A model generated the notes under the pieces. The model had not been told where the DNA came from, ran no database searches, and was given only the letters and a program-made list of their open reading frames with translations. Made by a program: the position numbers and the translations under genes. DNA of 36,211 nt from a virus: IMG/VR virus record IMGVR_UViG_3300009177_000024; one strand, 5' to 3'. Shown here piece by piece: positions 4,276 to 36,211 of the stretch. Within the stretch, counting starts at the first letter, position 1. The number at the start of each line of letters is the position of its first letter.

Positions 4276-4330
4276 GCAAGACGCGCTCTGGTTCCCAAAG
4301 GGAGCCCGCGGCGTCCCTGGAAGAAAACGA

Positions 4331-4363
4331 AGCCCTGAGACAGGTGTTCGGGGCTTTTTCTTT
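4331..4363 (+). terminator. Rho-independent terminator between the late promoter and the first late gene (tR'-like)
   Basis: 8-bp stem 4331-4338/4348-4355 including one G.U pair, 9-nt loop, then TTTTTCTTT. Confidence 0.65.
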
Positions 4364-4382
4364 GACCACTGGAAAGCTGAAT

Positions 4383-5192
4383 ATGAGCGCCTATTCCCGC
4401 GAAGATACGGACGGAGATACCACATTTGACCAGAATGTTGCCCTTGGCCTCTATGGCATCGGCGTTCGTCGCGTCATTGGCTTAGGGAATGCCGTCATTG
4501 GAGCTCCAGTAGCAGCACCAGCATTCATTGATGTGTGGCCAGGTGGCGGCACTTTCCCGTTCATCGCGAACGGCGCACCGGTCAATCTGGAAGTGAACTT
4601 CGCCAATGCAGCGGATACCGCAGCTGGGACAGGTGCTCGCTCTGTAAGCCTCAGTTTACTAGATCCTAGTTACAACGAGGTAAGCATCACCATTGTCAGC
4701 AACGGGGGTACTGTAGCGGTTCCCAATGGCCCATATCAAGCCGTGAACCAAGCATTCATCACCGGAGCTGGTAGCGGCCAGGTAAACGCAGGTACGATCA
4801 CCGTTCGCGATGCTGGTGGTGCAGGATCTAACCGCTGCATCATCCCAGCTGGCGCTGGTATCAGCCAGCAATCTCAGTACACTGTCCCTGACGGCCACAT
4901 GCTGCTGGTCAAGTCAGTGGAGATGGAAATCAACTCCAGCGCAGGTGGCGGCGGCGGTACGACGAAGGGCGCCGATTGCTCCTTCTACTTCGGAACTCCC
5001 GGCGCCGCGAATCCTTTCTTCCGCTTGCCGCGTAAGATGAGCTGCACGGACATCACGCCCTATGCGCTCGACGCCACCACAACGATTCCAGTCGGTCCAC
5101 GCACGAACTTCGGCATGCGCTGCACTTACACGAGCGCAGCACTGACGCTTACAGCGGCCTGGGAAGGCCACCTCTTCCGTCGCATCAACTGA
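4383..5192 (+). CDS. hypothetical beta-rich protein, 269 aa (first late gene)
   Basis: ATG at 4383 lies downstream of the terminator. Gly/Ala/Thr/Asn-rich composition typical of virion beta-sandwich proteins. Function unknown. Confidence 0.65.
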   Translation: MSAYSREDTDGDTTFDQNVALGLYGIGVRRVIGLGNAVIGAPVAAPAFIDVWPGGGTFPFIANGAPVNLEVNFANAADTAAGTGARSVSLSLLDPSYNEVSITIVSNGGTVAVPNGPYQAVNQAFITGAGSGQVNAGTITVRDAGGAGSNRCIIPAGAGISQQSQYTVPDGHMLLVKSVEMEINSSAGGGGGTTKGADCSFYFGTPGAANPFFRLPRKMSCTDITPYALDATTTIPVGPRTNFGMRCTYTSAALTLTAAWEGHLFRRIN

Positions 5193-7172: not shown

Positions 7173-9293
7173 ATGGCATCAAAGACCGACGACGATCTGC
7201 TGGCTGATGCACGCAAAACATTTGCGCGCGCGGAAGAGGTAGAGCGCTGCAACCGTGACAATTGGGTGGATGACGTTCGCTTCGCACGCCTGGGCGAGCA
7301 ATGGCCTGAAGCCATTCGCCTGCAACGCGAGCAGGGAGGGCGCCCATGCCTGACGATCAACCGCCTGCCAGCGTTTATCCGACAGGTCACAAACGATGCG
7401 CGCCAGAACTCCCCGGCGATCAAGTTCCATGCGGTGGGTGACGGCGCTGACCAAGAAACTGCGCTGATTCTCGATGGCATCGTCCGTAACATAGAATACA
7501 CCAGCGATGCCGATGTCGCTTACGATAACGCATTGGACAATGCAGTAACTGGCAGTTTCGGCTATTTCCGCATTAGCACCGATTACGCGAGCGACGACAC
7601 GTTCGATCAGGACATCAAGATCGAGCCGATCAAGAACCCGCTGACGGTCTACGGCGATCCTGACAACATGGATTCAGACTCGGCGAACTGGAACGTTTGC
7701 TTTGTCACTGAACTGTGGGAGAAGGAAGCATTCGAGCGGAAATGGCCCGGCGCCGAGACCGCTAGCTTTGACGCTGACAGCCACGATACAGCCAACTGGT
7801 TCACTGACAGCAAGGTGCGTGTTGCCGAGTGGTGGACGCGCGAGGAGGTTCCAGTCACGCTGCTCCAACTGTCCAATGGTCAGGTAATGCAGCAGGAGGT
7901 CTACCTCAAGCAGAAGGAATATCTCGACTTGGATGGCATCACCATCGCTCAGCAGCGTCCGTCGCGCACCATGAAGGTGATGCAGCGCATCATCACGGGC
8001 GGCGAGATCCTGGAAACGAATGAATGGCCAGGGAAGTACATCCCAATCGTGCCGGTCTACGGTGACGAAGTGGTGGTTGACGGTGAACGTTTCCTGCTAT
8101 CCCTGATCCGCTTCGCCAAAGACCCGCAGCAAATGGTGAATTACTGGCGCACGACGAGCACCGAACTGGTGGCTCTGGCGCCGAAAGCGCCATGGATCGG
8201 TGCGGTCGGCCAATTCGCTACAGATGCGCATAAATGGGCATCGGCGAACACCCAGACGCACCAGTACATCGAATACGACATGGTGATGGATCCGACCGGC
8301 CAAGTTCCGGCGCCACCACCACAGCGCCAAGGATTCGTCGGACCGCCAGCTGGAGCGCTCCAAGAGGCAATCAACGCCAGCGACGACATGAAATCGATCA
8401 TGGGTCTGTATGACGCTTCACTCGGCGCGCAGTCGAATGAAACCAGCGGTCGCGCTATCCTGGCACGACAGCGCGAAGGTGATGTCTCTACGTTCAACTT
8501 CACGGATAACCTGTCGCGCGCGATTCGTCATGCTGGCCGTATCCTCGCTGATCTGATCCCGAAGGTATACAACACGCCACGGATTCTGCGCATCATCCAC
8601 GAAGACGGAACGAATGAAGATGTCCCGGTGAACGGTGCGCAGCTGTCGCCGCAGCAGATCGCACAGAAACAGGCCGAGCAGAAGCAGGAACTGCGCAGCA
8701 TTGGCCGCATCTTCGACCTGACGACCGGTAAGTACGATGTGACCTGCGAAGCTGGTCCGAGTTACACCACGAAGCGCGAAGAAGCCGCCTCGCAGATCAT
8801 GGAATTCATCCGTGTTTATCCGCAGGCTGCTCCGGTTGTTGGCGATATCCTGGCACGCAATATGGATTGGCCGGGCGCGACTGAGATTTCCATGCGTCTG
8901 AAGCAGCTATTGCCGCCTCAGTTGCAAGGCCAAAGCCCAAAAGCGCAGGCCGCGCAGCAGCAGATTGGACAGCTGACCCAGGCGCTTCAGGTCATGCAAG
9001 GCCAATTGGCCGACAATCAGAAACAGGACGCTATCGACGCACGCAAGGCCGATATCGACGCATACAACGCCGAAACGAACCGTCTGAAGGTGGTTGGCAC
9101 GGCAATGAGCCCAGAGCAGGTACAGGCATTGGTCGTGCAAACGCTGGGGCAACTGTTCAATTCGCCTGATGTTTTGGTGGCACAGCAGCCTATGACTCAA
9201 CCAGCGCCTGAGATGCAGCAGCAAGAGATGCAAGAGCAACAACCCGGTGCGGGAGCAGTCCCGCTAGGTGCAGTCTTTCAGCAACCACAGTAA
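7173..9293 (+). CDS. portal protein (P22-type, long Q-rich helical C-terminus)
   Basis: 706 aa, immediately after terL. N-terminal region ...RDNWVDDVRFARLGEQWPEAIRLQREQGGRPCLTINRLP... is typical of P22-like portals. The C-terminal 130 aa are Q/A-rich coiled coil. Confidence 0.9.
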   Translation: MASKTDDDLLADARKTFARAEEVERCNRDNWVDDVRFARLGEQWPEAIRLQREQGGRPCLTINRLPAFIRQVTNDARQNSPAIKFHAVGDGADQETALILDGIVRNIEYTSDADVAYDNALDNAVTGSFGYFRISTDYASDDTFDQDIKIEPIKNPLTVYGDPDNMDSDSANWNVCFVTELWEKEAFERKWPGAETASFDADSHDTANWFTDSKVRVAEWWTREEVPVTLLQLSNGQVMQQEVYLKQKEYLDLDGITIAQQRPSRTMKVMQRIITGGEILETNEWPGKYIPIVPVYGDEVVVDGERFLLSLIRFAKDPQQMVNYWRTTSTELVALAPKAPWIGAVGQFATDAHKWASANTQTHQYIEYDMVMDPTGQVPAPPPQRQGFVGPPAGALQEAINASDDMKSIMGLYDASLGAQSNETSGRAILARQREGDVSTFNFTDNLSRAIRHAGRILADLIPKVYNTPRILRIIHEDGTNEDVPVNGAQLSPQQIAQKQAEQKQELRSIGRIFDLTTGKYDVTCEAGPSYTTKREEAASQIMEFIRVYPQAAPVVGDILARNMDWPGATEISMRLKQLLPPQLQGQSPKAQAAQQQIGQLTQALQVMQGQLADNQKQDAIDARKADIDAYNAETNRLKVVGTAMSPEQVQALVVQTLGQLFNSPDVLVAQQPMTQPAPEMQQQEMQEQQPGAGAVPLGAVFQQPQ

Positions 9294-9302
9294 GGAGTCG
9301 TC

Positions 9303-10151
9303 ATGAAGAAAATCGTCTTAGGTCTTCTGCTTGCTGCTGCTGCTTTCACTGTCCAGGCTCAGGTAGCCAACGCATTACGCCTCGATCAGCGCAATGCCGC
9401 GAATACTGGCTACATGAGTAAGTTCGTGGTTCCGGACAGTTCCATCGACTGCCTGGTCTGGATGGCTCCCGCTTCTTCTGGTGCAACTCCAGCATGCGCA
9501 AAGCTGGGCGACGGTTTCGTCAATGCTGGCGGCACGATCAGCGTATCATCTGGCCCACAAGGCCCAATCGGGCCACAGGGTCCACAAGGCGTGGCTGGTG
9601 CTGATGGTGTGGCTGGTGCGCAAGGCATTCAGGGCATCGAAGGTCCAGTCGGTCCTGCTGGTTCTACGGGTGCGACCGGCGCGCAGGGTCCAGTTGGCCC
9701 TCAAGGCTCTGTCGGTGCCACAGGCTCGCAAGGCCCAAAGGGCGACAAGGGCGACACTGGTGCTACCGGTCCTCAAGGACCAGCAGGAACGCCAGCGCCA
9801 ACATTCAGCTTTGGTCAGCCAGCCGCGCGCACGCTCGCAGTCTCGACCAGCTATCAGGCATCCGATCCAACCAAAGCCGCCGTGCTATATCCGAGCTTCG
9901 CCTGCACGAATGCCACGACCATCCTGGCTGCGAGTGGCTGCACTGTGCAAGTCCGAATCGGGACTTCTGCGCTGACCTGTTCGACCGGAACCGTCTATTT
10001 CACGCAATCACTGACCGTCAACCTCGGCTTGCTAATCACGCAGAACAGCACCAATCCGGTGCCAATTTTCCTGCCGATTGGCGGCTATTTCATCATCTGC
10101 CCTTCGGTTGGCACGTTCACCATCACCGCAGTCGAACAGACAGCAGGGTAA
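9303..10151 (+). CDS. secreted collagen-like protein: signal peptide, 27 uninterrupted G-X-Y triplets, cysteine-containing beta-rich C-terminal domain
   Basis: [20 protein letters not shown] is a Sec-type signal with an AQA cleavage motif. G-X-Y repeats occupy residues 84-164 (nt 9552-9794). Confidence 0.85.
9552..9794 (+). repeat. Collagen triplet (G-X-Y)x27 coding repeat
   Basis: Direct reading of the translation: [19 protein letters not shown]...GPQGPAGTP. Confidence 0.9.
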
Positions 10152-26982: not shown

Positions 26983-28189
26983 TGCTCGCTCCCCCTTCAG
27001 AGGACATGGCATCGGACTCAGCAGCCGAAATATCCACAGCAGCGATAAACTCTTCAGTGGTGCTCTTAAAGCGCCCTTTAGGCCTTGGGAACATGACGCA
27101 AACGACTTCTATGCCTGCACCTGAATCGGTAACCGATGCGAGATCCGCCACTTCTTTGAACCGTGCTGCATCTTTCTCCGCCTGTACGGCTGCTGTCTGT
27201 GCTGGGGCTTGGGCAGCGGCATAGAGGGCAGTTACGTGTTCAAGGCAGTAGCCATCTTTTACGGGGTCATCGCGACGGAAAATGCATGTGCCGGTGCCGG
27301 GCATTTCAATGTCTGCCTTGTCCTGAATCATCCAGCCTATTGGCTTATGCTCATCCAATTTGGACCGGATCATGCCCAGAACCGAAAATGCACATGCCCA
27401 CAGATCGACGTTCTTTTCTGGGATGGCCGTGCCAAGGCCCAGCTTTTCAGCAATCAGGCGCAGACGCCGAGCAGCATAATCGGAAGTAGTTTCGCCATCT
27501 TCACCAACGCCCACTGGCTGCTGCGCAGTGGTAGGTGCTGGCTGTGCTGCGGCAGCGGAAAGGGCGGAGCGTGCTTGATCGAACGTGGGTTTGTTCCACT
27601 CATCCTCGTCCATGCCCATGTGCGTCAGCATGGCATTCAAGGCAGACACAAGCTGCGTATTCACATCGGGCTCGCTTTGCTGGTTGGCGTATGTGAATGC
27701 GAGCATGGCGCGGAACTGCAGCAACATCGCGTTGAGTGCCATCCACGATCCGAAGCACACCTGCTGCTTGTCGTTTTCCCAGCCGCCAACGTGCTCAACC
27801 CACTGCTGCAATGTCCAGCCTTGGCGCTCTTTCAGTTTCTCTTGCTGCTTATCCATCACCACAGCAGAGCCTGCGGAAGAGGTGCGCTCGGTGGCGTCTT
27901 TGAAAGCATCGTGGATCGCGTTCTTCAGCTTCTTCTGATCGTATTCGTCAGCGAAATATGAGCGAGCGATTTGGTTCAATTGCTCATCGCTCGACTGCGC
28001 TGAAGATGTGCTCTCGGCGATGATGGCGCGTGCATCTTTAATCAGGCCGCGCATGTCGCATTCAAGTCCTCCGTGCGGGCAGGTGCCGTCCTCGTCCGCG
28101 CAATCTCTGCACATCGGGCGCGGACGCTTATCGAGAATTTCGAGGCAGTCGATTGCCCGCGTCAGTTTCTGCAAGTCTTGAGTGTTCAT
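26975..28189 (-). CDS. hypothetical multidomain protein, 404 aa, with an N-terminal CxxC-x6-C-x6-C cluster
   Basis: Long ORF. CRDCADEDGTCPHGGLEC near the N-terminus. Q/A/P-rich linkers. Confidence 0.7.
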   Translation of the reverse strand: MNTQDLQKLTRAIDCLEILDKRPRPMCRDCADEDGTCPHGGLECDMRGLIKDARAIIAESTSSAQSSDEQLNQIARSYFADEYDQKKLKNAIHDAFKDATERTSSAGSAVVMDKQQEKLKERQGWTLQQWVEHVGGWENDKQQVCFGSWMALNAMLLQFRAMLAFTYANQQSEPDVNTQLVSALNAMLTHMGMDEDEWNKPTFDQARSALSAAAAQPAPTTAQQPVGVGEDGETTSDYAARRLRLIAEKLGLGTAIPEKNVDLWACAFSVLGMIRSKLDEHKPIGWMIQDKADIEMPGTGTCIFRRDDPVKDGYCLEHVTALYAAAQAPAQTAAVQAEKDAARFKEVADLASVTDSGAGIEVVCVMFPRPKGRFKSTTEEFIAAVDISAAESDAMSSEGGASNA

Positions 28190-28213
28190 ATTATTCCTGG
28201 TGGGTGTGGGCGG

Positions 28214-28471
28214 TTAGATTTGAACAGCATCGGGCGCGCAAAAGTCTTGTATTTCCACTTGTATTTCCAATGCCGCTTTCTGAAACTTCATCTTCATCGC
28301 CGTCTCGTATTGAATGCGACGTTTGAACTGCTCGAATCCTGCCAGCCGCGCACTGATTTCGTCACCAGCCGCCACCTCTTCATAGTCAAATACCCGCGGC
28401 TTGTGCTTAGGGATGAAGACCCAATCTTTCACTCTTATTTCTACGAGCCAAATAGTTTCATCGTTGCTCAT
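28214..28471 (-). CDS. hypothetical protein, 85 aa
   Basis: ORF in the operon, with AAAGGAAAG upstream. Confidence 0.6.
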   Translation of the reverse strand: MSNDETIWLVEIRVKDWVFIPKHKPRVFDYEEVAAGDEISARLAGFEQFKRRIQYETAMKMKFQKAALEIQVEIQDFCAPDAVQI

Positions 28472-28513
28472 GTGTCTTTCCTTTATCCGCCTCTGTGTGG
28501 GAGGCGGGAGTGA

Positions 28514-29347
28514 TTATAGTTCTTGCAGCTCGCGTTGCACGATGGCTGACTTCTCGCAGCCAACGCACATCGGCATCTGAAATAGTTGATGCTGTTTTGG
28601 GTTATAGCCGCCTTTCGGTGGGCGACCCTCCCATTGCCACGTAAAGCCACGCTCAAGGCATTGCTGTTGTAGGCTATCGATGCGCTCGCCGAAACTCGGA
28701 TCACACTTGCGCCAGCGCTCCAGTTCCCCAGGCTGTGCATATGCGCCACAGCCAGATTCGCCGCTCATGCCGAGTTCTTTGGTTACCGGGTTTTCGGGCA
28801 TGCCGCTGGCCGCGTTATATGAATCGCGTTCATCCTTCGAAAACCAGTACATCGGATTGATCCAGATTTGGGCACCGACCTTGTTGATTTCACGGCCCGC
28901 ATAACCCACGCGGATGATGCTTTCATCGTGGCGGATGCCGGACGCAATCAGAACTTTCGATCGTTTGTGGTGACCTTTCTTCGTGTCACGAACCAACTTG
29001 CGCACACCGCGTTCTTTCAAGCGGGCATACATCATCTGATGCCCATCCGGACCAGGAAAACCGTACAGACGGCAAAGCTCGTCGTAATCTTGGCCGCAGT
29101 CCTCTAGCGCGCGGATTTCAGTTAAGTCCCAGCCGAGAGATTTGCAGGTTTCCCGCACGTAGATGCGCGTCCGCTCGATGCCAATCCCAGTATTGATGTG
29201 AAACGGCTTGCAGCCGGGGACGTTGTTCATCATCCAATGCGCAACCAGACGGCTATCATTACCACCACTGAAGCCAACATAGATAGCTATTGGGTCGTAT
29301 TGCTCGATGGCTCGCTGCACAATTTCCTGAGGCGTGAGCTTATTCAT
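28514..29347 (-). CDS. PAPS-reductase/DndC-like PP-loop ATP pyrophosphatase family protein
   Basis: PP-loop SGGNDS near the N-terminus. Conserved middle region and C-terminal cysteines (SGCG, CVGC). Confidence 0.85.
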   Translation of the reverse strand: MNKLTPQEIVQRAIEQYDPIAIYVGFSGGNDSRLVAHWMMNNVPGCKPFHINTGIGIERTRIYVRETCKSLGWDLTEIRALEDCGQDYDELCRLYGFPGPDGHQMMYARLKERGVRKLVRDTKKGHHKRSKVLIASGIRHDESIIRVGYAGREINKVGAQIWINPMYWFSKDERDSYNAASGMPENPVTKELGMSGESGCGAYAQPGELERWRKCDPSFGERIDSLQQQCLERGFTWQWEGRPPKGGYNPKQHQLFQMPMCVGCEKSAIVQRELQEL

Positions 29348-29894
29348 GGCCCGGCTCCTTCGCTGCACTCATGGCGATAGCGGCGCAATTGTCGTTGTCG
29401 GCTTCTTCTTTGATCGCCAACACGACGCCAAGATTGCTGCGCCTCAGCGCGTAGACGTTCTCTTGCCCATAGGCCACCAAACAAATCGGGGCACCGCTGT
29501 TGAACGATGCACGCTCGCCTGAAACGTGGTGGAAGTGCGGTCGGCCTTTGATGAACAGGACGGCATGCGCCGCGCCCCAAACACACTCGTAGAACATCGC
29601 GGTCTCAGTACGCGCCGGGATCAATGCGATGCCGTTTCCATGCTTTGCCATTCTGCGAAGCCAATTTACGGCTACTTTCCCGAATGGTGGGTTAAGCCAT
29701 ACCCTGCCGCTCCACTGCTGCTGCAGACCGTTCTCTTCTTTGCAGTAGTGTTTCTTCGCGGTTTCCCATGGCCTGATGTTGTGCATAGGCGCGCAAGGGT
29801 CCAGATCGAACTCGCCCAAGTGGGCAAGAATTTCAGGCGGTGTAAGCCATTCGTCTTTGCCCATTACTGGTGATTGGTGTCCCGATAAACTCAC
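29340..29894 (-). CDS. phage Dam-type DNA N6-adenine methyltransferase
   Basis: Motifs EWLTPPEI....G.FDLDPCA and WLNPPFG. Confidence 0.85.
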   Translation of the reverse strand: MSLSGHQSPVMGKDEWLTPPEILAHLGEFDLDPCAPMHNIRPWETAKKHYCKEENGLQQQWSGRVWLNPPFGKVAVNWLRRMAKHGNGIALIPARTETAMFYECVWGAAHAVLFIKGRPHFHHVSGERASFNSGAPICLVAYGQENVYALRRSNLGVVLAIKEEADNDNCAAIAMSAAKEPGHE

Positions 29895-30475
29895 GATATC
29901 TTCCCCTGTTCAATCAGAGAGGTGATAGCAGCGTCGATAGCTTCAATGGTGTCCTCGGCGGCTTTCGTCACGCCGCAGTCGCCGTCCCAGCCGAAGCGCC
30001 ACTGGCTGATCTTTTCCAATCCAGCGCGAGCAATCTTCAGCGCAGCATCCAGCTTGTCCTGCTCGCTCGGCTCTGCCGGTACTGCTTCTTGCTGGGGCTG
30101 GGATGGAGCGGCACCTGGAACTTTTGGCAATGGCATCCAATGCGTCACGTTACAGCCGCGCCAGACATTTTCATTTTCAAAATAGTTCAGTTCGCTAATC
30201 TGAACATTGGGATAGTTGGATTTCATATTGATAACGAGGACGTTTTCACTGAACATCCTTTCCCTCATTGCTGGAGGAAGACGTTCATCAACACTGATCC
30301 ATGCCCGATGATTATTCATCCGGCCCATTTCTTCCGCTGCATCCTGCATTGCGCAGAAAGCTTCCAAAGCTTGTTCAGGATCGCCTTTGAAGAAATCCCA
30401 ATATTCGACTTTCGCAAACTCACGGATCAGTGCGATCGCTTCGGCTGCTTTATCGCTGTATTTGTCGAAGCTCAT
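29891..30475 (-). CDS. DUF551 domain protein
   Basis: WISVDERLP...VLV...W....VTHWMPLPKVP is the DUF551 signature. Confidence 0.75.
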   Translation of the reverse strand: MSFDKYSDKAAEAIALIREFAKVEYWDFFKGDPEQALEAFCAMQDAAEEMGRMNNHRAWISVDERLPPAMRERMFSENVLVINMKSNYPNVQISELNYFENENVWRGCNVTHWMPLPKVPGAAPSQPQQEAVPAEPSEQDKLDAALKIARAGLEKISQWRFGWDGDCGVTKAAEDTIEAIDAAITSLIEQGKIS

Positions 30476-30633
30476 TTCGCCTCCTGAGCCAGACGCTTAC
30501 GAGCTCGGTAAATGGTCGATGGGCTTACTTTGTGCTTCTTTGCGAGTTCAGCATCGCTAGGCTTAGCATCAGCTGGAGCCTTGCTGTATTCGCGCATTGC
30601 CGCCTGAACTGCTGCGGTCGGATTGGATGGCAT
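30472..30633 (-). CDS. small HTH DNA-binding protein, 53 aa (not in the ORF track)
   Basis: Translation MPSNPTAAVQAAMREYSKAPADAKPSDAELAKKHKVSPSTIYRARKRLAQEAK. AAGGA lies upstream and there is ATGA coupling to the next gene. Confidence 0.6.
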   Translation of the reverse strand: MPSNPTAAVQAAMREYSKAPADAKPSDAELAKKHKVSPSTIYRARKRLAQEAK

Positions 30634-30665
30634 ATTTTTCCTTTAAGGGGCCGAAGCCCCATGTG

Positions 30666-30902
30666 TTAATCAGAGCCGTAGCCGTCGCCGGAGCCGTAGC
30701 CGTAGCCGGAGCCGGAGCCGGAGCCGTAGCCGGAGCCGTCGCCGGAGCCGTCGCCGTCGCCGTCGCCGTAGCCGTAGCCGGAGCCGGAGCCGGAGCCGTA
30801 GCCGTAGCCGTAGCCGGAGCCGTAGCCGTAGCCGTAGCCGTAGCCGGAGCCGGAGCCGTCGCCGGAGCCGGAGCCGGAGCGCCAGGTCTTATTGGTAGCC
30901 AT
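30666..30902 (-). CDS. (Gly-X)35 low-complexity protein, 78 aa, X = Ser/Tyr/Asp only
   Basis: The ORF has AAGGA upstream. Its 8-aa N-terminus MATNKTWR is followed by 35 Gly-X dipeptide units. Confidence 0.6.
   Translation of the reverse strand: MATNKTWRSGSGSGDGSGSGYGYGYGYGSGYGYGYGSGSGSGYGYGDGDGDGSGDGSGYGSGSGSGYGYGSGDGYGSD
30669..30878 (-). repeat. 35 tandem hexanucleotides; 34 have the form GGC-KMC on the coding strand (GCC-GKM on the plus strand)
   Basis: Direct reading: only GCCGTA, GCCGTC and GCCGGA units occur, plus one terminal ATCAGA. Confidence 0.95.
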
Positions 30903-31308
30903 GAATGCTGTCCTTTGCAGCGTCAGTAGTCGGGATCAACTCGCAAACGCCAGTCAGGTAAATTTCAGGATTTACCACATCTACCTTTCCGCCATCTTTT
31001 TTCAGGCCATGTTGGGCAACGCCGGAAAGTGCAATTCCTTCCTTAGCTTTCCAACTCCACAGGCGACGCGAATTTTTCAGCGTCACATTTTCACCATCCA
31101 CACTTACAACCTCACCTGCGTGAACGCCTGCCGAGTAACAGCGCGCAATAACGTACTTCCCGATGAAAGGATGTTGTTTCGGTTGAGCTTGAGTACCACC
31201 AATGAATGCTGTGATTTCACGGATTTGGCCGATGGTCAGATCGTTGATGTCCAATTTCTTCTCCTTGGGATATGGCTTAGCGAAGTGCTTTGCCTTGATG
31301 AGAATCAT
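30889..31308 (-). CDS. conserved phage protein, 139 aa (start uncertain)
   Basis: The upstream part of the 155-aa ORF overlaps a terminator hairpin, so the ATG at 31308 is preferred. Motif GKYVIARCYSAGVHAGEVVSVDGENVTLKNSRRLWSW recurs in phage genomes (memory only). Confidence 0.55.
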   Translation of the reverse strand: MILIKAKHFAKPYPKEKKLDINDLTIGQIREITAFIGGTQAQPKQHPFIGKYVIARCYSAGVHAGEVVSVDGENVTLKNSRRLWSWKAKEGIALSGVAQHGLKKDGGKVDVVNPEIYLTGVCELIPTTDAAKDSIHGYQ

Positions 31309-31342
31309 ATCATATGCAATTGCGTTTGCAAGAACTATTTGC

Positions 31343-31369
31343 AATAAAAAAGCCATCCGAAGATGGCTC
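31343..31369 (-). terminator. Intrinsic terminator inside the leftward operon
   Basis: The minus strand reads AGCCATC-TTCG-GATGGCT followed by TTTTTTATT, directly after the Gp157-like stop. Confidence 0.65.
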
Positions 31370-31374
31370 TGTTG

Positions 31375-31878
31375 CTATTTGATTTCTAGTCGCGTTCCTG
31401 TTGAAAGCAATGCGCCAGGTACCTCCTCTCCAGCCTTGATCGCTTCCGCAATCGCCTTTTTGTCTGGAGCTGGTGGAGGTGGTTCTGGCTGACGCATGAA
31501 TGAAGTAGGAATCAATGCTTGTTCGAAGATTTCTACGCTGGCCGGATTATTCTTGATAGTCAGCGCGAAATGTGGACATTCGATTTTCTGTACTTTGGCA
31601 ATCTCCATGCATGTCTTCGTGTATTCGCGCAGATTCGCAGCCCGCTTCTCTATCGCCTTGCGGCGATCTGCCATTTCCTTCTCAGCAGCTTTGATTGCTT
31701 CGGCGGTCGCTTCCAGATTCTTGATGGCATAGGCGACATTCTGTGCCTTCAATTCAAGAGGATAGCTTTCAGCTTCCAAAGTGTCTGCGATTGCTTGTTC
31801 ATCAGTCTGCGTGTCCATCAGATGATCAACCAGCACTCGATGTTCGTGCGCAATAGCGTAAAGGCTCATAGCAGTCAT
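31375..31878 (-). CDS. Siphovirus Gp157-family protein
   Basis: MSLYAI...DTLEA......KA.NVAY.IKNLEA.AEAIKAAEKEMADRRKA.E.RA..L.....P.F.L.I..NP.SV......IP...DKKAI..A.KAGEEVPGA matches the family pattern. Confidence 0.8.
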   Translation of the reverse strand: MTAMSLYAIAHEHRVLVDHLMDTQTDEQAIADTLEAESYPLELKAQNVAYAIKNLEATAEAIKAAEKEMADRRKAIEKRAANLREYTKTCMEIAKVQKIECPHFALTIKNNPASVEIFEQALIPTSFMRQPEPPPPAPDKKAIAEAIKAGEEVPGALLSTGTRLEIK

Positions 31879-31886
31879 GTTGGCTC

Positions 31887-32537
31887 CTAGAAAGGAAGAT
31901 CGGCTAGATCATCATCAGCAAAGCCAGTAGGCGGCATTCCAGTGGATTGACTGCGGCCAGTTGTACCAGATTTCTTCTTCAATGGCTTGTCTGCCAGTAA
32001 AGCAATCACTTTCGACAACTGCTCAGGCTTGGTCTTGCGCGCCATGATTTCAGACGCCATTAGTTCAGTCCCGAACTGGAATACAGCAAAGAAGCCAATT
32101 CGCCAGCCATGTTCACCGGTTGGATAGCCATCTTTCATCTTCTCGTATTCTTCGGAGCGAAGCAGAAGACCGATAGGCTTGTTCATTAATTCAACGAAGC
32201 ATTCAGCAGATTGGATGGTTTCGGCCCCTGCATCATTGTCCCACTTCTTCACCTGGGCCAGCTTAGGCTCCATATTGCGAACTTGAAGACAAGCCATGAT
32301 GGCATTGACTTGATTCATGCCTGGAAGCGGTTCGTTATTGGACTTCATTGTCCAAATATCGAAGCGCGTTTCACGGCCATCTTGGTCGCGGAACGAAAAA
32401 CCAATTCCATGAGTGCCTTTGTTCGTGCTTACCAACTTTTCAGCACGAATGAACGTGCCCTGATATTTGCCGGTGTCGTTAATATAAGCGCCGATATTAT
32501 CCGCTTTAGATGCTGCTGTAGGATCGAGAGAGTACAT
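31887..32537 (-). CDS. phage single-strand DNA-binding-type protein with an SSB-like acidic C-terminal tip
   Basis: Lies between the Sak4-like and Gp157-like genes, the usual position. The C-terminus ...FADDDLADLPF mimics the bacterial SSB DDDIPF tip. Confidence 0.6.
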   Translation of the reverse strand: MYSLDPTAASKADNIGAYINDTGKYQGTFIRAEKLVSTNKGTHGIGFSFRDQDGRETRFDIWTMKSNNEPLPGMNQVNAIMACLQVRNMEPKLAQVKKWDNDAGAETIQSAECFVELMNKPIGLLLRSEEYEKMKDGYPTGEHGWRIGFFAVFQFGTELMASEIMARKTKPEQLSKVIALLADKPLKKKSGTTGRSQSTGMPPTGFADDDLADLPF

Positions 32538-32549
32538 GGTTTTCCTTGG

Positions 32550-33209
32550 TTAAGTTGAGAGTCCGTAGTATTCGACGATCAGTCGATCGACTTCGGCGAG
32601 ATCGTTCTCGACATGCTCAGATTCGAATAAGCCAAGAGGCGATTTGGTTGTGTCGCTACCACTGTTCTGTGTAGCGAAAATGTAGTTGTCATTGATGCGC
32701 TGAGTGCGCAGAACGATAGTGACAAGACCTTCCAAGACGATCTTCTCGTCCAATAGCTTGCCAATGGTCTTGATCTTGGTTTTGCCAAGTTCATCCGTCG
32801 CCGTGTGGCTTAGGATATAGACGCGCTTGTTATCGGGAAGGGCTGATGCTTGAGTGAATATATCCCAGGCATGGCGCGCAATCTCGTTGTACTTTGCGAA
32901 CGCCTGATTGCCTACTTCTTGGTCTGTGACACGGCGCATGAATTCATTAGCCATCACATACTGGAAATCATCAATGATGATGATCGGCTTACTGGTACGG
33001 CGCATTGCTTCAACGATCTTAGCGCTGTTGTCCGTCACAAAGACTGAGCCGGCAGGCTGATCCTTACTGATCGTTTTCCAGTCTTTAGATTTGAATGGAA
33101 GAGGCTTTTTGACTGCCTGCAGAAGCAATACGTCTTCAGGATTGAAGTTGCGCAGGCTAGTGGACTTTCCGGTGCCGGATTCGCCCATGATGAGGGTCGT
33201 TATTGACAT
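32550..33209 (-). CDS. Sak4-like RecA-fold ATPase (AAA_24 type)
   Basis: Walker A GESGTGKS at residues 9-16 and Walker B IIIIDD. The 219-aa size is typical. Confidence 0.85.
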   Translation of the reverse strand: MSITTLIMGESGTGKSTSLRNFNPEDVLLLQAVKKPLPFKSKDWKTISKDQPAGSVFVTDNSAKIVEAMRRTSKPIIIIDDFQYVMANEFMRRVTDQEVGNQAFAKYNEIARHAWDIFTQASALPDNKRVYILSHTATDELGKTKIKTIGKLLDEKIVLEGLVTIVLRTQRINDNYIFATQNSGSDTTKSPLGLFESEHVENDLAEVDRLIVEYYGLST

Positions 33210-33257
33210 GGTTTCCCTTGGTTGTTGATACTGGTTTACTTGGTTTGAACTGCGATA

Positions 33258-33422
33258 CTAAAACTCGATTTCTCCTGCGTCAAGCATTCGTTGATGCTCT
33301 TTCTGCTGTTCTTCAGTCAACTCTGGTCGCCAGATGTTCTTTGGCATGGGGAATAAGCGCTCCAAGTATTCGGCATGAAGCTGGCGCTTACGGGCTTCAT
33401 CGATTGGGAGGATCTGGATCAT
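33258..33422 (-). CDS. small protein, 54 aa (not in the ORF track)
   Basis: AGGTGA precedes the ATG. Translation: MIQILPIDEARKRQLHAEYLERLFPMPKNIWRPELTEEQQKEHQRMLDAGEIEF. Confidence 0.5.
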   Translation of the reverse strand: MIQILPIDEARKRQLHAEYLERLFPMPKNIWRPELTEEQQKEHQRMLDAGEIEF

Positions 33423-33565
33423 TGACTCACCTTTGCGGTGTTTTCCAGTTGCTGAAGTTTGGCAAGTCGTATGGCCTCGTCAAGAACTTTCAGCCAGACT
33501 GTTTTACTCACGATCACATTGTTGTCGATGTCTTTCTTTACTTGTTGTAGTTCAGTGAGTGTCAC
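33419..33565 (-). CDS. small protein, 48 aa, GTG start (not in the ORF track)
   Basis: GGAG lies 6 nt upstream of the GTG. ATGA-type overlap with the next gene. Confidence 0.45.
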   Translation of the reverse strand: MTLTELQQVKKDIDNNVIVSKTVWLKVLDEAIRLAKLQQLENTAKVSQ

Positions 33566-33818
33566 TTTCTTCTCCTATCTTCTTTTAGGGGTTAGCACAT
33601 CGTCTTGGAAGCCTCAGCGGCTGGTTGAGCGGGCTTTTGCATGAGGCTTTGTAGGCGAAAGACGGAAAAGCCTATACAGAGGCACTCTAGACAAACCATC
33701 ATGCTCACACAACCATAAGCAATACAGTTTCCATTTCAAAACAATCTTTGATGAAATCTTGCAATCGTGCAGGATGCAACTTCATAACTTTCACATCTAA
33801 CTTCTTAGGCCATTAAAT

Positions 33819-34034
33819 CTAATATGTATAAAGAAGTCGCTGGGCTTCGCAAAAGATTTCGTGTGAGTTCTGATCGAATCGCAGATTAGTCAGCGAGAAT
33901 GCCATCTGTGCTTCAGGCCCGAACTGCTCTTGATACTCGTTCCATGCGAACCAGCGTGCTAGGCAAAGGGCTTCATACCAATCGGCCTCAGTTTCATCCT
34001 GCACGCGATCCTGGCGCTCTTGAATCACGCCCAT
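33819..34034 (-). CDS. hypothetical acidic protein, 71 aa
   Basis: The ATG at 34034 overlaps the stop of the preceding small ORF. Confidence 0.5.
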   Translation of the reverse strand: MGVIQERQDRVQDETEADWYEALCLARWFAWNEYQEQFGPEAQMAFSLTNLRFDQNSHEIFCEAQRLLYTY

Positions 34035-34135
34035 GCCATCACCGCCCAGCCAAGAGCTGAGCCTCCGAGAATCAGCAGCAACAGCCAAGTCGGGCCATTA
34101 AGAAATGGCTTTGAAGTAGGAATACGCTTGATCAT
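34025..34135 (-). CDS. possible 36-aa single-TM peptide (not in the ORF track)
   Basis: Translation MIKRIPTSKPFLNGPTWLLLLILGGSALGWAVMAWA. Weak Shine-Dalgarno sequence. Confidence 0.35.
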   Translation of the reverse strand: MIKRIPTSKPFLNGPTWLLLLILGGSALGWAVMAWA

Positions 34136-34144
34136 GATCGATTC

Positions 34145-34873
34145 TCAATCGCAAAGGCTCAGGAATTCAACGCCTGGAGATTTCAACTCAATCAAAGCAT
34201 CCAAGCAAATTTTCGCGGCAGATTTCAGCACTTCCAAGCGAGCGGCATAGGCAGCGGCAGCGGCATCGGCAGCGGCAGCGGCATAGGCATAGGCAGCGGC
34301 ATCGGCATAGGCAGCGGCAGCGGCAGCGGCAGCGGCAGCGGCATAGGCAGCGGCATCGGCATAGGCATAGGCAGCGGCATCGGCATAGGCAGCGGTACGA
34401 ACCTTACGTGCCAAATCACGCGCATCTTGTGCTGCCTTTTTAGCTTCTGCCAAGTCTTTAGCCTCTTCACAAAGTACAGACTGAGCTTCAAACTCTTCCG
34501 CGAATTTTGGATTATGCTTTGCTGCGGCTCGCAAAGCGATTGGGATCAATTTCTGTACAGTCCCAAGGCAAACCAAATTCACGAAAGCTTTCTGATCAAT
34601 ACTATTGCTTCCGAGTTGTGCGATCGACAGACGGCGCAAAGTATCAGTGCGATCTTTATCAGTTGGCCATTTCGCATCATTCAGACGAATCATGTAAGCA
34701 CGAACAGCACTTCCAACGCAGGATGGCTGATCGCTATGATTCACGCCCATCGCGTAGCAAACAGCGGCCTCCACACACATGCTGCCAGGCTTTGCTTCAC
34801 CCAAGCCACCGACCAAGCCAGCATTCACAGTGTCCAGAACTTTGCTAGCGAACTCACGAGTAATTTCTTGCAT
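34145..34873 (-). CDS. first leftward gene: Cys-containing N-terminal domain plus a C-terminal (Ala-X)25 tract, X = Ala/Tyr/Asp
   Basis: GGAG lies 6 nt upstream of the ATG at 34873. The N-terminal ..GSMCVEAAVCYAMG...SDQPSCV...V..Y.I.LND..W motif resembles a widespread uncharacterised family that also carries Ala-rich aromatic/Asp repeats (memory only). Confidence 0.7.
   Translation of the reverse strand: MQEITREFASKVLDTVNAGLVGGLGEAKPGSMCVEAAVCYAMGVNHSDQPSCVGSAVRAYMIRLNDAKWPTDKDRTDTLRRLSIAQLGSNSIDQKAFVNLVCLGTVQKLIPIALRAAAKHNPKFAEEFEAQSVLCEEAKDLAEAKKAAQDARDLARKVRTAAYADAAAYAYADAAAYAAAAAAAAAAAYADAAAYAYAAAAADAAAAAYAARLEVLKSAAKICLDALIELKSPGVEFLSLCD
34241..34395 (-). repeat. About 25 tandem hexanucleotides of the form GCC-KMT on the coding strand (GGC-AKM on the plus strand)
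   Basis: Direct reading: the tract is built from GGCATA, GGCATC and GGCAGC units. Confidence 0.9.
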
Positions 34874-34919
34874 CTTCTTCTCCAGTAGTTGCAACGCAGG
34901 ATGCGCTGCTGATGGATGA

Positions 34920-34948
34920 AGAATAATCCAAAGAGATCAACGTGTCAA
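34920..34948 (-). promoter_or_regulatory. Candidate leftward early promoter
   Basis: The minus strand reads TTGACA, a 17-nt spacer, then TATTCT, about 45 nt upstream of the ATG at 34873. Confidence 0.5.
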
Positions 34949-34967
34949 CCGATCGAAGTCAACAAAA

Positions 34968-34985
34968 ATAACTTGCGCAAGTTAT
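34968..34985. promoter_or_regulatory. Perfect 18-bp palindrome ATAACTTGCGCAAGTTAT (operator candidate)
   Basis: Exact inverted repeat overlapping the -35 of the rightward promoter. Confidence 0.6.
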
Positions 34986-35001
34986 CTTCATAGACAATAA
35001 T
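34973..35001 (+). promoter_or_regulatory. Candidate rightward early promoter
   Basis: TTGCGC, a 17-nt spacer, then AATAAT, followed by the TAAGGAGA Shine-Dalgarno sequence and the ATG at 35026. Confidence 0.5.
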
Positions 35002-35025
35002 CTAGCCATCGATAAGGAGAACTAT

Positions 35026-35238
35026 ATGAGCAAACCAGTAGACATCCAAGAGGAAATGCGAGCATTCATCGCACGAAAGTACAAGACCCAGACAGAAGCA
35101 GCCAAGCATTGGGGGTGCTCTAAAGCATTCGTGTCCTATGTGGTCAACGGTGACCGCGAGCCGAACGAAAAGATGCTTGAAGATGCTGGCTTTGAAAAGG
35201 TCGAACGGCGGCCAGTCTACGTGAGGATTCGGAAATGA
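35026..35238 (+). CDS. Cro-like small HTH regulator, 70 aa
   Basis: First rightward gene. HTH-like TQTEAAKHWGCSKAFVSYVVNG. Confidence 0.65.
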   Translation: MSKPVDIQEEMRAFIARKYKTQTEAAKHWGCSKAFVSYVVNGDREPNEKMLEDAGFEKVERRPVYVRIRK

Positions 35239-35696
35239 GGCAACCATTCGAAAAGCGAACATTCATATTGCGATCGGTCGAAGTTCAGGGCCGATTGATT
35301 GAACTGATTCCCGCGCTTCCTTTGGACGATGAGAAGCCTCTGCGCATTGTGATCGATGATCCTCTTCCAAAGAAAAGTCGCGAGCAGGAGGAAAAATATC
35401 ACGCGATGATCGGCGATATTGCCAAGCAGTTTGAGCATTGCGGCAAGACTTGGTCAGCAGAAGACATGAAGCGTTTGCTCGTGGATCAATTCCGTCGAGA
35501 CACGTTCAAAGATCCGGACATTGCACAGCTCTGGCAATCGATGGATCAGGTTGAAATGGCGCCGTCTTTGGATGGCTCAGGAGTTGTTGTATTTGGAGTA
35601 CAGACAAGGAGATTCCCGGTGAAGTTAGCTGGAATCTTCATAGAGTGGCTATATGCCTTCGGAAGCGAACTTAACATTCAATGGAGTCAACCATGA
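35235..35696 (+). CDS. ninB: NinB/Orf-family recombination mediator
   Basis: Pattern ...P.KP..IVI.DP....S.EQ..KYHAMIGDIA.Q....G..W..ED.K......F.............G.G.VV.G.QT...........FIEWLYAFG.E..I.WS parallels lambda NinB. Confidence 0.8.
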   Translation: MRQPFEKRTFILRSVEVQGRLIELIPALPLDDEKPLRIVIDDPLPKKSREQEEKYHAMIGDIAKQFEHCGKTWSAEDMKRLLVDQFRRDTFKDPDIAQLWQSMDQVEMAPSLDGSGVVVFGVQTRRFPVKLAGIFIEWLYAFGSELNIQWSQP

Positions 35697-35932
35697 AACA
35701 CGATGCTCAAATGCTGGCAGCTATCGGCCAATGGAAAGAACGTTCTGAACCACGTCGAGTTGAAGACATTCTTGTATCACTCTTGCGCACAGATCCTGCG
35801 ATCCAGGCAATGGTGGCGAAATATTCGACATTGAATGCTTACGGCAGGCTTTGCGCTGTTCGTTTGGTTCAATCCATTCCTTCTGAAGCCGAATTGGAGA
35901 ATCTGCGAAATGACACTAGGAAGGAACTTTGA
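35693..35932 (+). CDS. hypothetical protein, 79 aa
   Basis: The ATG overlaps the ninB stop. Confidence 0.6.
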   Translation: MKHDAQMLAAIGQWKERSEPRRVEDILVSLLRTDPAIQAMVAKYSTLNAYGRLCAVRLVQSIPSEAELENLRNDTRKEL

Positions 35933-35935
35933 TCG

Positions 35936-36211
35936 ATGCGGCCAAGTGAGTTCAAGCCCATGAAGCCAGCGCCAAAGATCCGATCCAAAAAGTGCAAGGT
36001 CTGCCGGGAATATTTCACTCCGCGCTCCAGCTTTCATAAAGCGTGCGGCCCTGAATGCGCACAGGAATATGTAAAGCAGGAGAAGGCAAAGAAAGACCGC
36101 CAGGAGCGCCAGAAAGGGCTACAGGCGCTTAAAACGAAGCGAGACTATATCGCTGATGCCCAACGTGAATTTAATCGCGCTGTGCGCCTTCGGGATCAAT
36201 TAGCAGGCCAT
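35936..36211 (+). CDS. ninG: NinG/Rap-family endonuclease, N-terminal part (continues at nt 124 of the window after removal of the terminal duplicate)
   Basis: MRPSEFKPMKPAPKIRSKKCKVCREYFTPRSSFHKACGPECAQEY... carries the NinG zinc-ribbon-like N-terminus. The frame is continuous with 1..447 through the repeat. Confidence 0.85.
   Translation, partial: MRPSEFKPMKPAPKIRSKKCKVCREYFTPRSSFHKACGPECAQEYVKQEKAKKDRQERQKGLQALKTKRDYIADAQREFNRAVRLRDQLAGH
36089..36211. repeat. Terminal direct repeat, identical to 1..123
   Basis: Exact identity to the window start. Confidence 0.95.

Follow-up and report, generated by a model that had tools for sequence, protein, structure and literature searches.

At the locus studied, two short genes lie one after the other on the minus strand of the window, the whole 36,211-nt stretch of viral DNA that was analysed (IMG/VR record IMGVR_UViG_3300009177_000024). 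The upstream gene encodes a small DUF6948 protein, and the downstream gene, which overlaps its stop codon, encodes a protein of 78 residues that consists almost entirely of glycine alternating with Ser, Tyr or Asp (the G-X protein). A stem-loop follows directly after the stop codon of the G-X gene. The pair is placed in the leftward early and recombination region, and among its neighbours are genes for SSB, Sak4/AAA_24, RecT/ERF, Gp157, methylases and HTH proteins. The coordinates of the features are collected in Table 1.

Table 1. Features at the DUF6948 and G-X locus; positions are those of the window.
Feature	Position	Strand	Description
G-X protein gene	30666-30902	-	78 codons plus stop, encoding MATNKTWR-(X-Gly)34-SD
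Coding hexanucleotide minisatellite	30675-30878	-	34 units of KMC-GGC (TCCGGC x15, TACGGC x13, GACGGC x6), followed by TCT GAT TAA
Tandem Repeats Finder array	30674-30880		Period 6, 34.5 copies
Non-repeat N-terminal leader	30879-30902	-	MATNKTWR (ATG GCT ACC AAT AAG ACC TGG CGC), basic residues then an aromatic; conserved within clades as MA[TS][NK]xKx[FW]; other clades have MSKLNKP or MPRLN
Overlap of the G-X start with the DUF6948 stop	30889-30902	-	14 nt, ATGGCTACCAATAA; a translational-coupling layout
Shine-Dalgarno-like sequence	30911-30915	-	AAGGA, 8 nt upstream of the ATG and inside the DUF6948 coding sequence
DUF6948 (PF22253) gene	30889-31254	-	121 aa, predicted Sm/LSm-like beta-barrel; true start TTG at 31254 after AAGGAG (31261-31266); the 155-codon ORF reaching 31356 is over-extended
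Stem-loop	30647-30660	-	GGGGC-UUCG-GCCCC, directly after the G-X stop codon, no U-tract
Two-gene unit	30634-31253	-	DUF6948 + G-X gene + hairpin, about 620 bp, precisely absent in relatives L019 and L021
Terminator-like hairpin	31349-31370	-	AGCCATC-TTCG-GATGGC+T6, upstream of the pair
Promoter-like sequence	31304-31331	-	TTGCAA-N16-TATGAT, upstream of the pair
Shadow ORF	30597-30929	+	110 codons, open across the array

The G-X gene had been noticed in a preliminary description made from the sequence alone, and most of what was said there holds. The strand was not given, and the array has 34 perfect units and not 35; read in the Gly-X register it is 33 units plus GGC-TCT plus GAT. All 34 glycine codons are GGC. 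The overlap, the Shine-Dalgarno sequence and the hairpin were also confirmed, as was the suggestion that this is a genuine coding gene with its own start. Chance is excluded, since the longest G-x run in shuffled window sequence was 4 units as compared to the 34 observed, and given the codon usage of the phage itself (GGC 51 %, TCC 16 %, TAC 51 %, GAC 48 %) the probability of the observed synonymous choices is about 10^-27.5. The hairpin alone is not statistically unusual (z = -0.71), and without a U-tract it is more likely an RNA 3'-end or stability element than a strong terminator. However, stem-loops after the G-X stop are enriched in the family as a whole, with different sequences in different lineages (44 % as compared to 23 % of controls, p = 0.013).

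What the preliminary description missed is that the gene belongs to a large family, for which no description was found in the literature searched, and that it is paired with the upstream "GKYVIARCYSAGVH" gene (DUF6948), which is the main clue to its function. A megablast search of positions 28000-36000 against GenBank phages gave no match, and relatives were reached only through proteins. A G-X ORF was present in 18 of 18 IMG/VR loci with a full DUF6948 gene and in 47 of 52 genome loci from at least 8 bacterial phyla, while the remaining five DUF6948 loci lacked it. Overall, 75 of 86 related loci have the ORF, with n about 15-60 units, and in 69 of these 75 its start overlaps the 3' end of the DUF6948 gene by 4-20 nt, never in the same frame. 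The family is also found in cultured phages of Ralstonia (NK-7), Pectobacterium/Dickeya (8 phages), Vibrio, Iodobacter and Chlorobiaceae, where the gene is often unannotated (Iodobacter phage PhiPLPE, Vibrio IKEMa6-1) or labelled as fibroin-like. The linkage is reciprocal, 7 of 7 G-X proteins found by the repeat alone follow a DUF6948 gene. Searches of Pfam, PHROGs, NCBIfam and PADLOC gave no hits for the G-X protein, and for forms in which the tract is attached to other small domains Pfam gave only compositional hits (keratin head, sulphur-globule protein and TrAA12), although these were useful for the reciprocal test. No third conserved neighbour was found among 143 flanking ORFs. In blastn comparisons the alignment of L019 and L021 with the window runs from 31380 to 31254 and resumes at 30633, and the two genes are thus gained and lost as one unit together with the trailing stem-loop. 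The terminator-like and promoter-like signals upstream, which are consensus matches only, are also present in relatives that lack the pair and are not specific to it. About 1400 sequence clusters of DUF6948 exist in public data, and recognising the pair turns a DUF and a repeat that looks like junk into a defined two-gene module. Annotation pipelines need to keep such ORFs.

Selection acts on the protein, that is on the alternating glycine, the restriction of X, the frame, the start and the stop. Among 2350 X positions the residues were S 36.6 %, Y 29.6 %, D 24.3 % and N 4.2 %, with all others below 2 %. Each array uses mainly one glycine codon, but the codon differs between lineages, GGC in 64 arrays, GGT in 10, GGG in 3 and GGA in 2, and TAC or TAT, GAC or GAT, and TCN or AGC are used for the other residues (AGC for Ser in locus L058). 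The suggestion in the preliminary description that a constraint acts on the DNA itself is therefore not supported, whereas the homogenisation of codons within an array, which it also proposed, is.

At the DNA level the array behaves as a coding hexanucleotide minisatellite, in which units are copied and deleted, and the mechanism is inferred to be slipped-strand mispairing or unequal recombination. The window and two near-identical relatives from the source population, L090 and L001, differ by 1 nt in 1978 nt upstream but carry 34, 23 and at least 31 units, respectively. In the Pectobacterium phages the alleles range from 162 to 270 nt and all differences are multiples of 6. Phages Ymer and Amona have 1082 nt of identical flanks, yet their arrays differ by 12 unit edits. 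Every allele seen is in frame with the same start and stop, the change in repeat number without loss of the ORF agrees with the preliminary description, and the locus is a clean example of concerted evolution of a coding minisatellite under protein-level selection.

The partner protein matches DUF6948 in Pfam (E = 4e-28) and the homologues are about 120 aa. The AlphaFold2 model of the protein (pLDDT 89.2) has 5 strands plus helices, in line with the N-terminal helix and strongly bent five-stranded beta-sheet of the Sm fold, and all 50 best PDB matches are Sm/LSm/SmAP chains, among them SmD3/SmB (1d3b) and snRNP Sm chains, with Foldseek E 1e-3 to 7e-3 and target-normalised TM 0.5-0.73. The fold is nevertheless only predicted, and sequence methods do not reach significance. 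The only Pfam hit to an Sm-type profile was LSM14 at E = 0.052, 14 bits against a cut-off of 30, and the best hit in a profile search of PDB sequences was uL24 at E = 0.12. It should also be noted that small beta-barrels such as SH3, Tudor and KOW resemble each other. The G-X protein is predicted to be disordered, with a pLDDT of 37 and no secondary structure, but this is a low-confidence model folded from a single sequence, which cannot distinguish disorder from an unmodelled beta-rich assembly. It is acidic, with a pI of 4.05 and a net charge of -5 (family median -9.5 per 100 aa), and has no signal peptide or hydrophobic segment.

It is somewhat more likely than not that the G-X protein is a partner of the Sm-like protein. 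We infer that the acidic, Tyr-rich and presumably disordered polypeptide is made in fixed proportion with the DUF6948 protein by translational coupling and binds it, although nothing in our analysis shows that the two proteins touch. It would then supply in trans the kind of glycine-rich low-complexity tail that Sm and Hfq proteins elsewhere carry in cis. In that role it is conceivable that it either tunes or occludes the nucleic-acid-binding surface of the barrel, with Asp as phosphate mimic and Tyr as base mimic on alternate residues of an extended chain, or makes the complex multivalent so that it self-associates. The pair would act during the early DNA replication and recombination phase of the infection. 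Charge complementarity between the partners is weak and uninformative, the DUF6948 core has a median pI of 8.0 and a net charge of +1.

A less likely, but still possible, explanation is that the G-X protein has an effector role of its own, as an anti-defence decoy or sponge, an aggregating or amyloid-like (silk-type beta) toxin or scaffold, or a slippery substrate that jams host AAA+ proteases. DUF6948 would then be only a co-expressed helper or a functionally separate gene in the same cassette, and the hypervariability would reflect an arms race with a host sensor. The two genes are never fused in frame among the about 1400 clusters (the tail of one candidate, P0283, is an array read in the wrong frame), which could mean that the G-X protein acts away from DUF6948. 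The tract also occurs attached to other small domains, its variability with identical flanks is extreme, and the pair is dispensable and occurs in both lytic and temperate phages (there is an integrase near locus L095), as is typical of accessory or counter-defence genes. On the other hand, no hits to defence-related models were found, even the domain-fused forms are all adjacent to DUF6948, AlphaFold gives no beta structure, and the variability needs no selection since slippage of a 34-unit array suffices. That the tract is translated but nearly neutral, a self-expanding microsatellite tolerated at the end of the operon with constraints only against stop codons and harmful residues, appears improbable. 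The four-fold variation in length, the almost random unit order between close relatives and the lack of a predicted fold would agree with it. However, the tract is retained across at least 8 phyla and at 36-100 % DUF6948 identity, with the same start-stop overlap, the same three residues despite codon turnover and clade-conserved leaders, and X excludes residues one mutation away, such as P, T, A, C, H and V. A neutral tract would be lost or frame-shifted in many lineages, which is not seen.

The overlap could also suggest programmed ribosomal frameshifting, giving an Sm-like protein with a Gly-X tail in cis as in Acinetobacter Hfq, and the G-X frame is indeed open for 10-25 codons upstream of its ATG in many loci. 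This is improbable, since the overlap lengths and the relative frames vary (+1 in 53 loci, +2 in 21), some loci have gaps of 0-46 nt, no conserved slippery heptamer was seen, and each G-X ORF has its own ATG with AAGGA or AAGGAG at the correct spacing (at the same place in most IMG/VR relatives) and a leader conserved from the Met onward. A function of the repeat as DNA or RNA, for example as a recombination hotspot, a protein-binding array or a structured nucleic acid, is strongly disfavoured. All six frames are open across the array, the periodicity is strict and GGC dominates, but third codon positions change between lineages while Gly-[S/Y/D] is kept, the start codon, Shine-Dalgarno sequence and stop are conserved only in the Gly-X frame, and other frames would give different peptides in GGT or GGG arrays. 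The two arrays in the window use only T/G at codon position 1 and A/C at position 2, but this just reflects the S/Y/D(/A) codons, as other lineages use AAC (Asn), TTC (Phe), GAA (Glu) and AGC (Ser). It is very unlikely that the variation is an assembly artefact. The array of L001 abuts a contig end and degenerates there, many genomes come from 2x150 Illumina data, and array interiors from short-read assemblies, which break or scramble at such repeats, could contain some errors. The key alleles are however supported. The longest exact internal repeat is 40 nt, an independent k141 assembly (ENA ERZ27252350) is identical at 3467 of 3468 nt across the locus, including the array, and Ymer and Abuela, which are independent isolates, have identical arrays. 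A diversity-generating retroelement is equally unlikely, as no reverse transcriptase family appeared among the strong PHROG hits for the window's ORFs, no ORF over 200 aa contains YxDD, and neither array has a second copy or a cross-match to the other, only chance matches of 30 nt or less.

A more speculative and rather unlikely possibility is that the two proteins form a new, widespread two-component phage system, in which an Sm-like ring and the hypervariable polypeptide either build a condensate or scaffold for early phage DNA/RNA transactions, or act as a single-stranded nucleic-acid mimic that captures host RNA/ssDNA-binding or defence proteins. The rapid in-frame reshuffling of the array would then be adaptive, through tuning of valency or escape from host recognition, rather than neutral. 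The family offers a natural bacterial-virus system for asking what a minimal sticker-spacer disordered protein does, with length and composition variants already supplied by evolution.

Hfq of Acinetobacter/Moraxellaceae has an Sm-type core with a long, disordered C-terminal domain of glycine-rich GGFGGQ repeats and an acidic tip, and its repeat number matters for RNA binding and autoregulation (PMC11617691). In the phages the tract is a separate polypeptide in an accessory cassette, the period is a strict dipeptide and not a hexapeptide, X is S/Y/D and not F/Q, and the core matches Sm proteins only by predicted fold. The eukaryotic SmD1/SmD3/SmB proteins, which probably carry Gly-Arg dipeptide tails that are read by the Sm-like Tudor barrel of SMN, offer another parallel, but X is there basic (methylated Arg), the tail is in cis and not hypervariable, and Sm1/Sm2 sequence motifs are lacking in DUF6948. 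The comparisons with silk and FUS made in the preliminary description remain analogies only. The G-X protein has 13 [G/S]Y[G/S] motifs in its 78 residues, with Tyr stickers separated by Gly/Ser spacers as in the FUS low-complexity domains (PMC5641905), but these are nearly uncharged and rich in Gln, while the tract is acidic, lacks Gln and alternates strictly by two residues. Silk fibroin (GAGAGS/GAGAGY) shares the strict alternation, with Ser and Tyr among the X residues, but Ala, which dominates X in silk, is 0.6 % here, Asp is abundant, the protein is tiny and cytoplasmic, and the annotation of the NK-7 homologue XCO36015.1 as a fibroin heavy chain-like protein is a compositional match and not homology. 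As in coding tandem-repeat (VNTR or contingency-type) loci of bacteria and phages, the copy number of a short unit inside a gene changes rapidly and gives population polymorphism, but with a unit of 6 nt there is no on/off switching by frameshift, the variation is in length and unit order only, and the whole protein is essentially the repeat.

The sequence readings show that the G-X ORF begins with MATNKTWR, continues with 34 hexamers of the form KMC-GGC (TCC-GGC x15, TAC-GGC x13, GAC-GGC x6) and ends with TCT GAT TAA. All 34 Gly codons are GGC, and Tandem Repeats Finder reports a period of 6 with 34.5 copies. The preliminary description counted 35 units, but there are 34 perfect units plus a degenerate end. 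The other features it listed are all present: the 14-nt overlap with the upstream gene, the AAGGA located 8 nt before the ATG and the GGGGC-UUCG-GCCCC stem-loop, although the stem-loop has no U-tract and is not unusual by itself (z = -0.71). Chance is excluded, since shuffled sequence gives G-x runs of at most 4 units as compared to the 34 observed, and the synonymous choices have a probability of about 10^-27.5 under the codon usage of the phage itself, in which TCC is only the third-ranked Ser codon at 16 %. An assembly artefact is very unlikely. The array contains no exact internal repeat longer than 40 nt, so reads or k-mers of 41 nt or more resolve it, and the exact 78-aa protein occurs on a second contig from an independent k141 assembly (ENA ERZ27252350), which matches the window at 3467 of 3468 nt, including the whole array.

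The window is a lambdoid-type phage genome. The structural and lysis genes (terminase, portal, major head, tail fibres, holin and endolysin) are on the + strand along with NinB and NinG, and a leftward early operon is on the - strand. The designation of the G-X product as an early protein in the preliminary description is therefore a reasonable inference from position. In the same operon, the gene for a PAPS-reductase-domain protein, with weak hits to PHROG 'PAPS reductase' and PADLOC SspD (E = 1.6e-4), overlaps a Dam-type N6-adenine methyltransferase gene, and together they may form a DNA-modification module.

Coordinates of the features in the window and in related loci
Sequence	Feature	Coordinates	Strand
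Window	249-aa ORF with no family hits	34145-34894	-
Window	Hexamer array in the 249-aa ORF	34241-34395	-
Window	Sak4-like annealase	32550-33209	-
Window	SSB	31887-32537	-
Window	Gp157	31375-31878	-
Window	Terminator-like hairpin	31349-31370	
Window	Promoter-like TTGCAA-N16-TATGAT	31304-31331	
Window	155-codon ORF as called in public gene sets (P0001)	30889-31356	-
Window	DUF6948	30889-31254	-
Window	G-X ORF	30666-30902	-
Window	Hexamer array in the G-X ORF	30675-30878	-
Window	110-codon ORF opposite the G-X ORF	30597-30929	+
Window	GGGGC-UUCG-GCCCC stem-loop	30647-30660	
Window	Small HTH	30472-30633	-
Window	DUF551	29891-30475	-
Window	Dam-type methylase	29340-29894	-
Window	PAPS-reductase-like	28514-29368	-
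Window	PAPS-reductase-like and Dam-type methylase genes together	28514-29894	-
Window	Large structural genes, tail-fibre region	7173-10151	+
Window	Period-9 and period-15/21 tandem repeats	9552-9618 and 9025-9239	+
L001 (IMG/VR 3300010397)	Degenerating G-X array near contig end	4660-4773	
L060	Additional G-X array or ORF	949-1368	
L064	Additional G-X array or ORF	3984-4397	

A search of IMG/VR with the upstream DUF6948 protein gave 21 loci. All 18 loci with a full DUF6948 gene carry a (Gly-[S/Y/D])n ORF immediately downstream on the same strand, even at 57-80 % DUF6948 identity. A scan of one genome per GTDB species gave 55 loci, from Alpha-, Beta- and Gammaproteobacteria (including Moraxella, Neisseria, Pectobacterium and Sphingomonas), Bacteroidota, Firmicutes, Actinobacteria, Saccharibacteria, Planctomycetes, Chlorobi and Poribacteria, and of the 52 with enough downstream sequence 47 have the tract. 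It was also possible to find it in cultured phages: in Ralstonia NK-7, where it is annotated 'fibroin heavy chain-like protein', in eight Pectobacterium/Dickeya phages, where it is 'hypothetical', in Vibrio IKEMa6-1 and Iodobacter PhiPLPE, where it is unannotated, and in Chlorobiaceae phage CV-1-33. Pooled, 75 of 86 loci have the ORF, and in 69 of those 75 its start codon overlaps the DUF6948 3' end by 4-20 nt, never in the same frame. Some genome loci (L060 and L064) carry additional long G-X arrays or ORFs a few hundred bases to a kilobase downstream of the DUF6948-adjacent one, so the tract can be present in more than one gene per element.

The linkage is reciprocal. A search with the repeat protein alone retrieved 23 G-X-tract proteins, some with extra small domains, and all 7 whose contigs we examined sit directly after a PF22253 gene. 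In some lineages (proteins P0121-P0143; loci L093-L099, L048, L054 and L079-L081) the tract is fused to uncharacterised small domains, one being an N-terminal domain of ~65 aa ('...GAC..P.VG...L.WAE...PLW') and the others C-terminal ('GC..H...W..NW' or 'VY.IDGIPT'), and in the loci examined these proteins still sit directly after a DUF6948 gene. Furthermore, the relatives L019 and L021 align to the window up to the DUF6948 start (31254) and resume at the HTH start (30633), which is a precise indel of about 620 bp covering the DUF6948 gene, the G-X gene and the hairpin. No third gene is consistently linked, and the neighbours are generic phage early and DNA-metabolism genes.

A comparison of the X positions (n = 2350) gave S 36.6 %, Y 29.6 %, D 24.3 %, N 4.2 %, F 1.6 % and E 1.4 %, with everything else below 1 %. 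Residues one mutation away from TCC, TAC or GAC (Pro, Thr, Ala, Cys, His, Val) are essentially absent. Each array is nearly mono-codon, 60 of 79 arrays having under 0.3 bit of Gly-codon entropy, but the codon nevertheless differs between lineages. The Gly codon is GGC in 64 arrays, GGT in 10, GGG in 3 and GGA in 2, Tyr is TAC or TAT, Asp is GAC or GAT, and Ser is TCC, TCT, TCA or, throughout the array of locus L058, AGC. The start codon, the Shine-Dalgarno sequence, a clade-conserved leader (MA[TS][NK]xKx[FW]; MSKLNKP; MPRLN) and a stop soon after the array are conserved only in the Gly-X frame. This argues strongly against the alternative raised in the preliminary description, that a constraint acts on the DNA itself. 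The 110-codon ORF on the opposite strand is a shadow of the repeat.

The lack of synonymous variation is explained by the array behaving as a coding minisatellite. Three phage contigs whose upstream 1978 nt differ from each other by one base carry arrays of 34 units (the window), 23 units (contig L090) and at least 31 units (contig L001, which breaks at a contig end). They share the first 6 units and, where complete, the last ~12, and differ inside. The L001 contig ends about 100 nt after a premature TAG inside a degenerating G-X array (GGC GTT GGG TCC GGC GAA ...), which looks like an assembly breaking down inside the repeat and is a warning about array sequences at contig ends. The Pectobacterium phages Ymer and Amona have 682 + 400 nt of identical flanks, but their arrays are 222 and 204 nt long and differ by 12 unit edits, as compared to 17.4 +/- 1.6 for shuffled arrays, while Ymer and Abuela, which are independent isolates, have identical arrays. 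All length differences among the eight isolates are multiples of 6, and some arrays contain higher-order block duplications, of 100 nt in locus L004 and 131 nt in NK-7. There is no reverse transcriptase and no template copy, which speaks against a DGR. Unit gain and loss by slipped-strand mispairing or unequal recombination, with purifying selection on composition, explains the codon uniformity, the polymorphism and the stable ends, although the slippage mechanism itself is inferred and not observed.

The partner, DUF6948 (PF22253), is a family of about 1400 clusters at 50 % identity. Nearly all members are 90-170 aa and single-domain, and none is fused in frame to a G-X tract. One database protein, P0281, fuses a DUF551-like N-terminal region (WISVDERLPEE...VTHWMPIP) to a DUF6948 domain, and the window encodes a separate DUF551 protein two genes downstream of the pair. 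This is a possible functional link between DUF551 and DUF6948. Another protein, P0236, is a tandem double DUF6948. The 155-codon ORF called in public gene sets is over-extended in the window, since homologues are about 120 aa and the likely start is the TTG at 31254, in AAGGAG-N6-TTG. The extra 34 codons cover a terminator-like hairpin and a promoter-like sequence that contains an inverted repeat, TTGCAAACGCAATTGCA. An alignment-based AlphaFold2 model of DUF6948 is confident (pLDDT 89.2, pTM 0.73), and all 50 best PDB matches are Sm/LSm/archaeal SmAP chains, with E 1e-3 to 7e-3 and TM up to 0.73. Sequence methods, however, give only a sub-threshold LSM14 Sm-domain hit at E = 0.052 and nothing significant in the PDB. 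The Sm-like fold is therefore a supported prediction, but membership of the Sm family is not established.

The G-X protein is 7.3 kDa with a pI of 4.05 and a net charge of -5, and has 13 Tyr, all within [G/S]Y[G/S] motifs. AlphaFold2, run on the single sequence, gives pLDDT 37 and no secondary structure, which is consistent with disorder but is weak evidence. Aromatic residues are normally depleted in prokaryotic and phage low-complexity regions (PMC6821194), so a tract with about 15 % Tyr overall is atypical. In the literature searched, no paper mentions DUF6948, PF22253 or 'fibroin heavy chain-like' phage proteins, the paper describing the Ymer-genus phages does not mention the gene, and no Pfam, PHROG, NCBIfam or PADLOC model covers the G-X protein. 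The nearest known things are analogies: Sm/Hfq proteins with Gly-rich tails, FUS-like low-complexity domains, silk (GX)n repeats and coding VNTRs. An Sm-fold protein together with a glycine-rich low-complexity repeat is known already. What is new is that the two, the fold being predicted in this case, are split into two coupled genes, that the repeat is a strict dipeptide and that it is hypervariable.

The inferred translational coupling, the co-occurrence and the co-loss argue that the two products act together, most simply as a complex. By analogy, Acinetobacter Hfq has an Sm core followed by redundant Gly-rich GGFGGQ repeats and an acidic tip, and these affect RNA binding and autoregulation (PMC11617691), and the Gly-Arg dipeptide tails of SmD1 and SmD3 appear to be read by the Sm-like SMN Tudor barrel. 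We therefore propose, without a demonstration of binding, that the G-X polypeptide is a trans-supplied low-complexity 'tail' of the Sm-like protein. It is conceivable that it tunes or occludes a nucleic-acid-binding surface. Side chains on alternate residues of an extended chain are about 6.8 Å apart, which is close to inter-phosphate spacing, and Asp could then mimic phosphate and Tyr a stacked base. Alternatively, it could make the assembly multivalent and self-associating. Charge complementarity is weak, the DUF6948 core having a median pI of 8.0. The genomic company of the pair (SSB, annealases, Gp157, methylases) suggests a role in early DNA/RNA transactions. We are confident that this is a real, protein-selected gene obligately paired with DUF6948, but the specific tail, mimic or scaffold mechanism is tentative, and the two statements combined are only slightly more likely than not.

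Among other explanations, it is possible, though less likely, that the G-X protein is an independent effector, such as an anti-defence decoy, an aggregating or silk-like protein or a slippery peptide that jams proteases. A tolerated, near-neutral expansion is improbable, and a frameshift fusion to DUF6948 even more so. An element acting at the DNA or RNA level is very doubtful given that the codons change between lineages, and least likely of all is that the array reflects an assembly artefact or a DGR.

The same early operon holds a second coding hexamer array. The 249-aa ORF contains 25 x (KMT-GCC), which encodes (X-Ala)25 with X = Ala (GCT), Tyr (TAT) or Asp (GAT), and every fixed Ala is GCC. 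The copy in L001 is 95 % identical and differs mainly in the array, whereas positional counterparts in loci L003, L014 and L021 have a different N-terminal domain followed by AAAW/AAAG/AAAR Ala-rich repeats. It looks like another fast-evolving low-complexity early protein. Period-9 and period-15/21 tandem repeats were also observed inside the large structural genes of the tail-fibre region, and the period-9 arrays (GGCCCACAA, GTGGCTGGT) could encode collagen-like or other triplet-peptide repeats.
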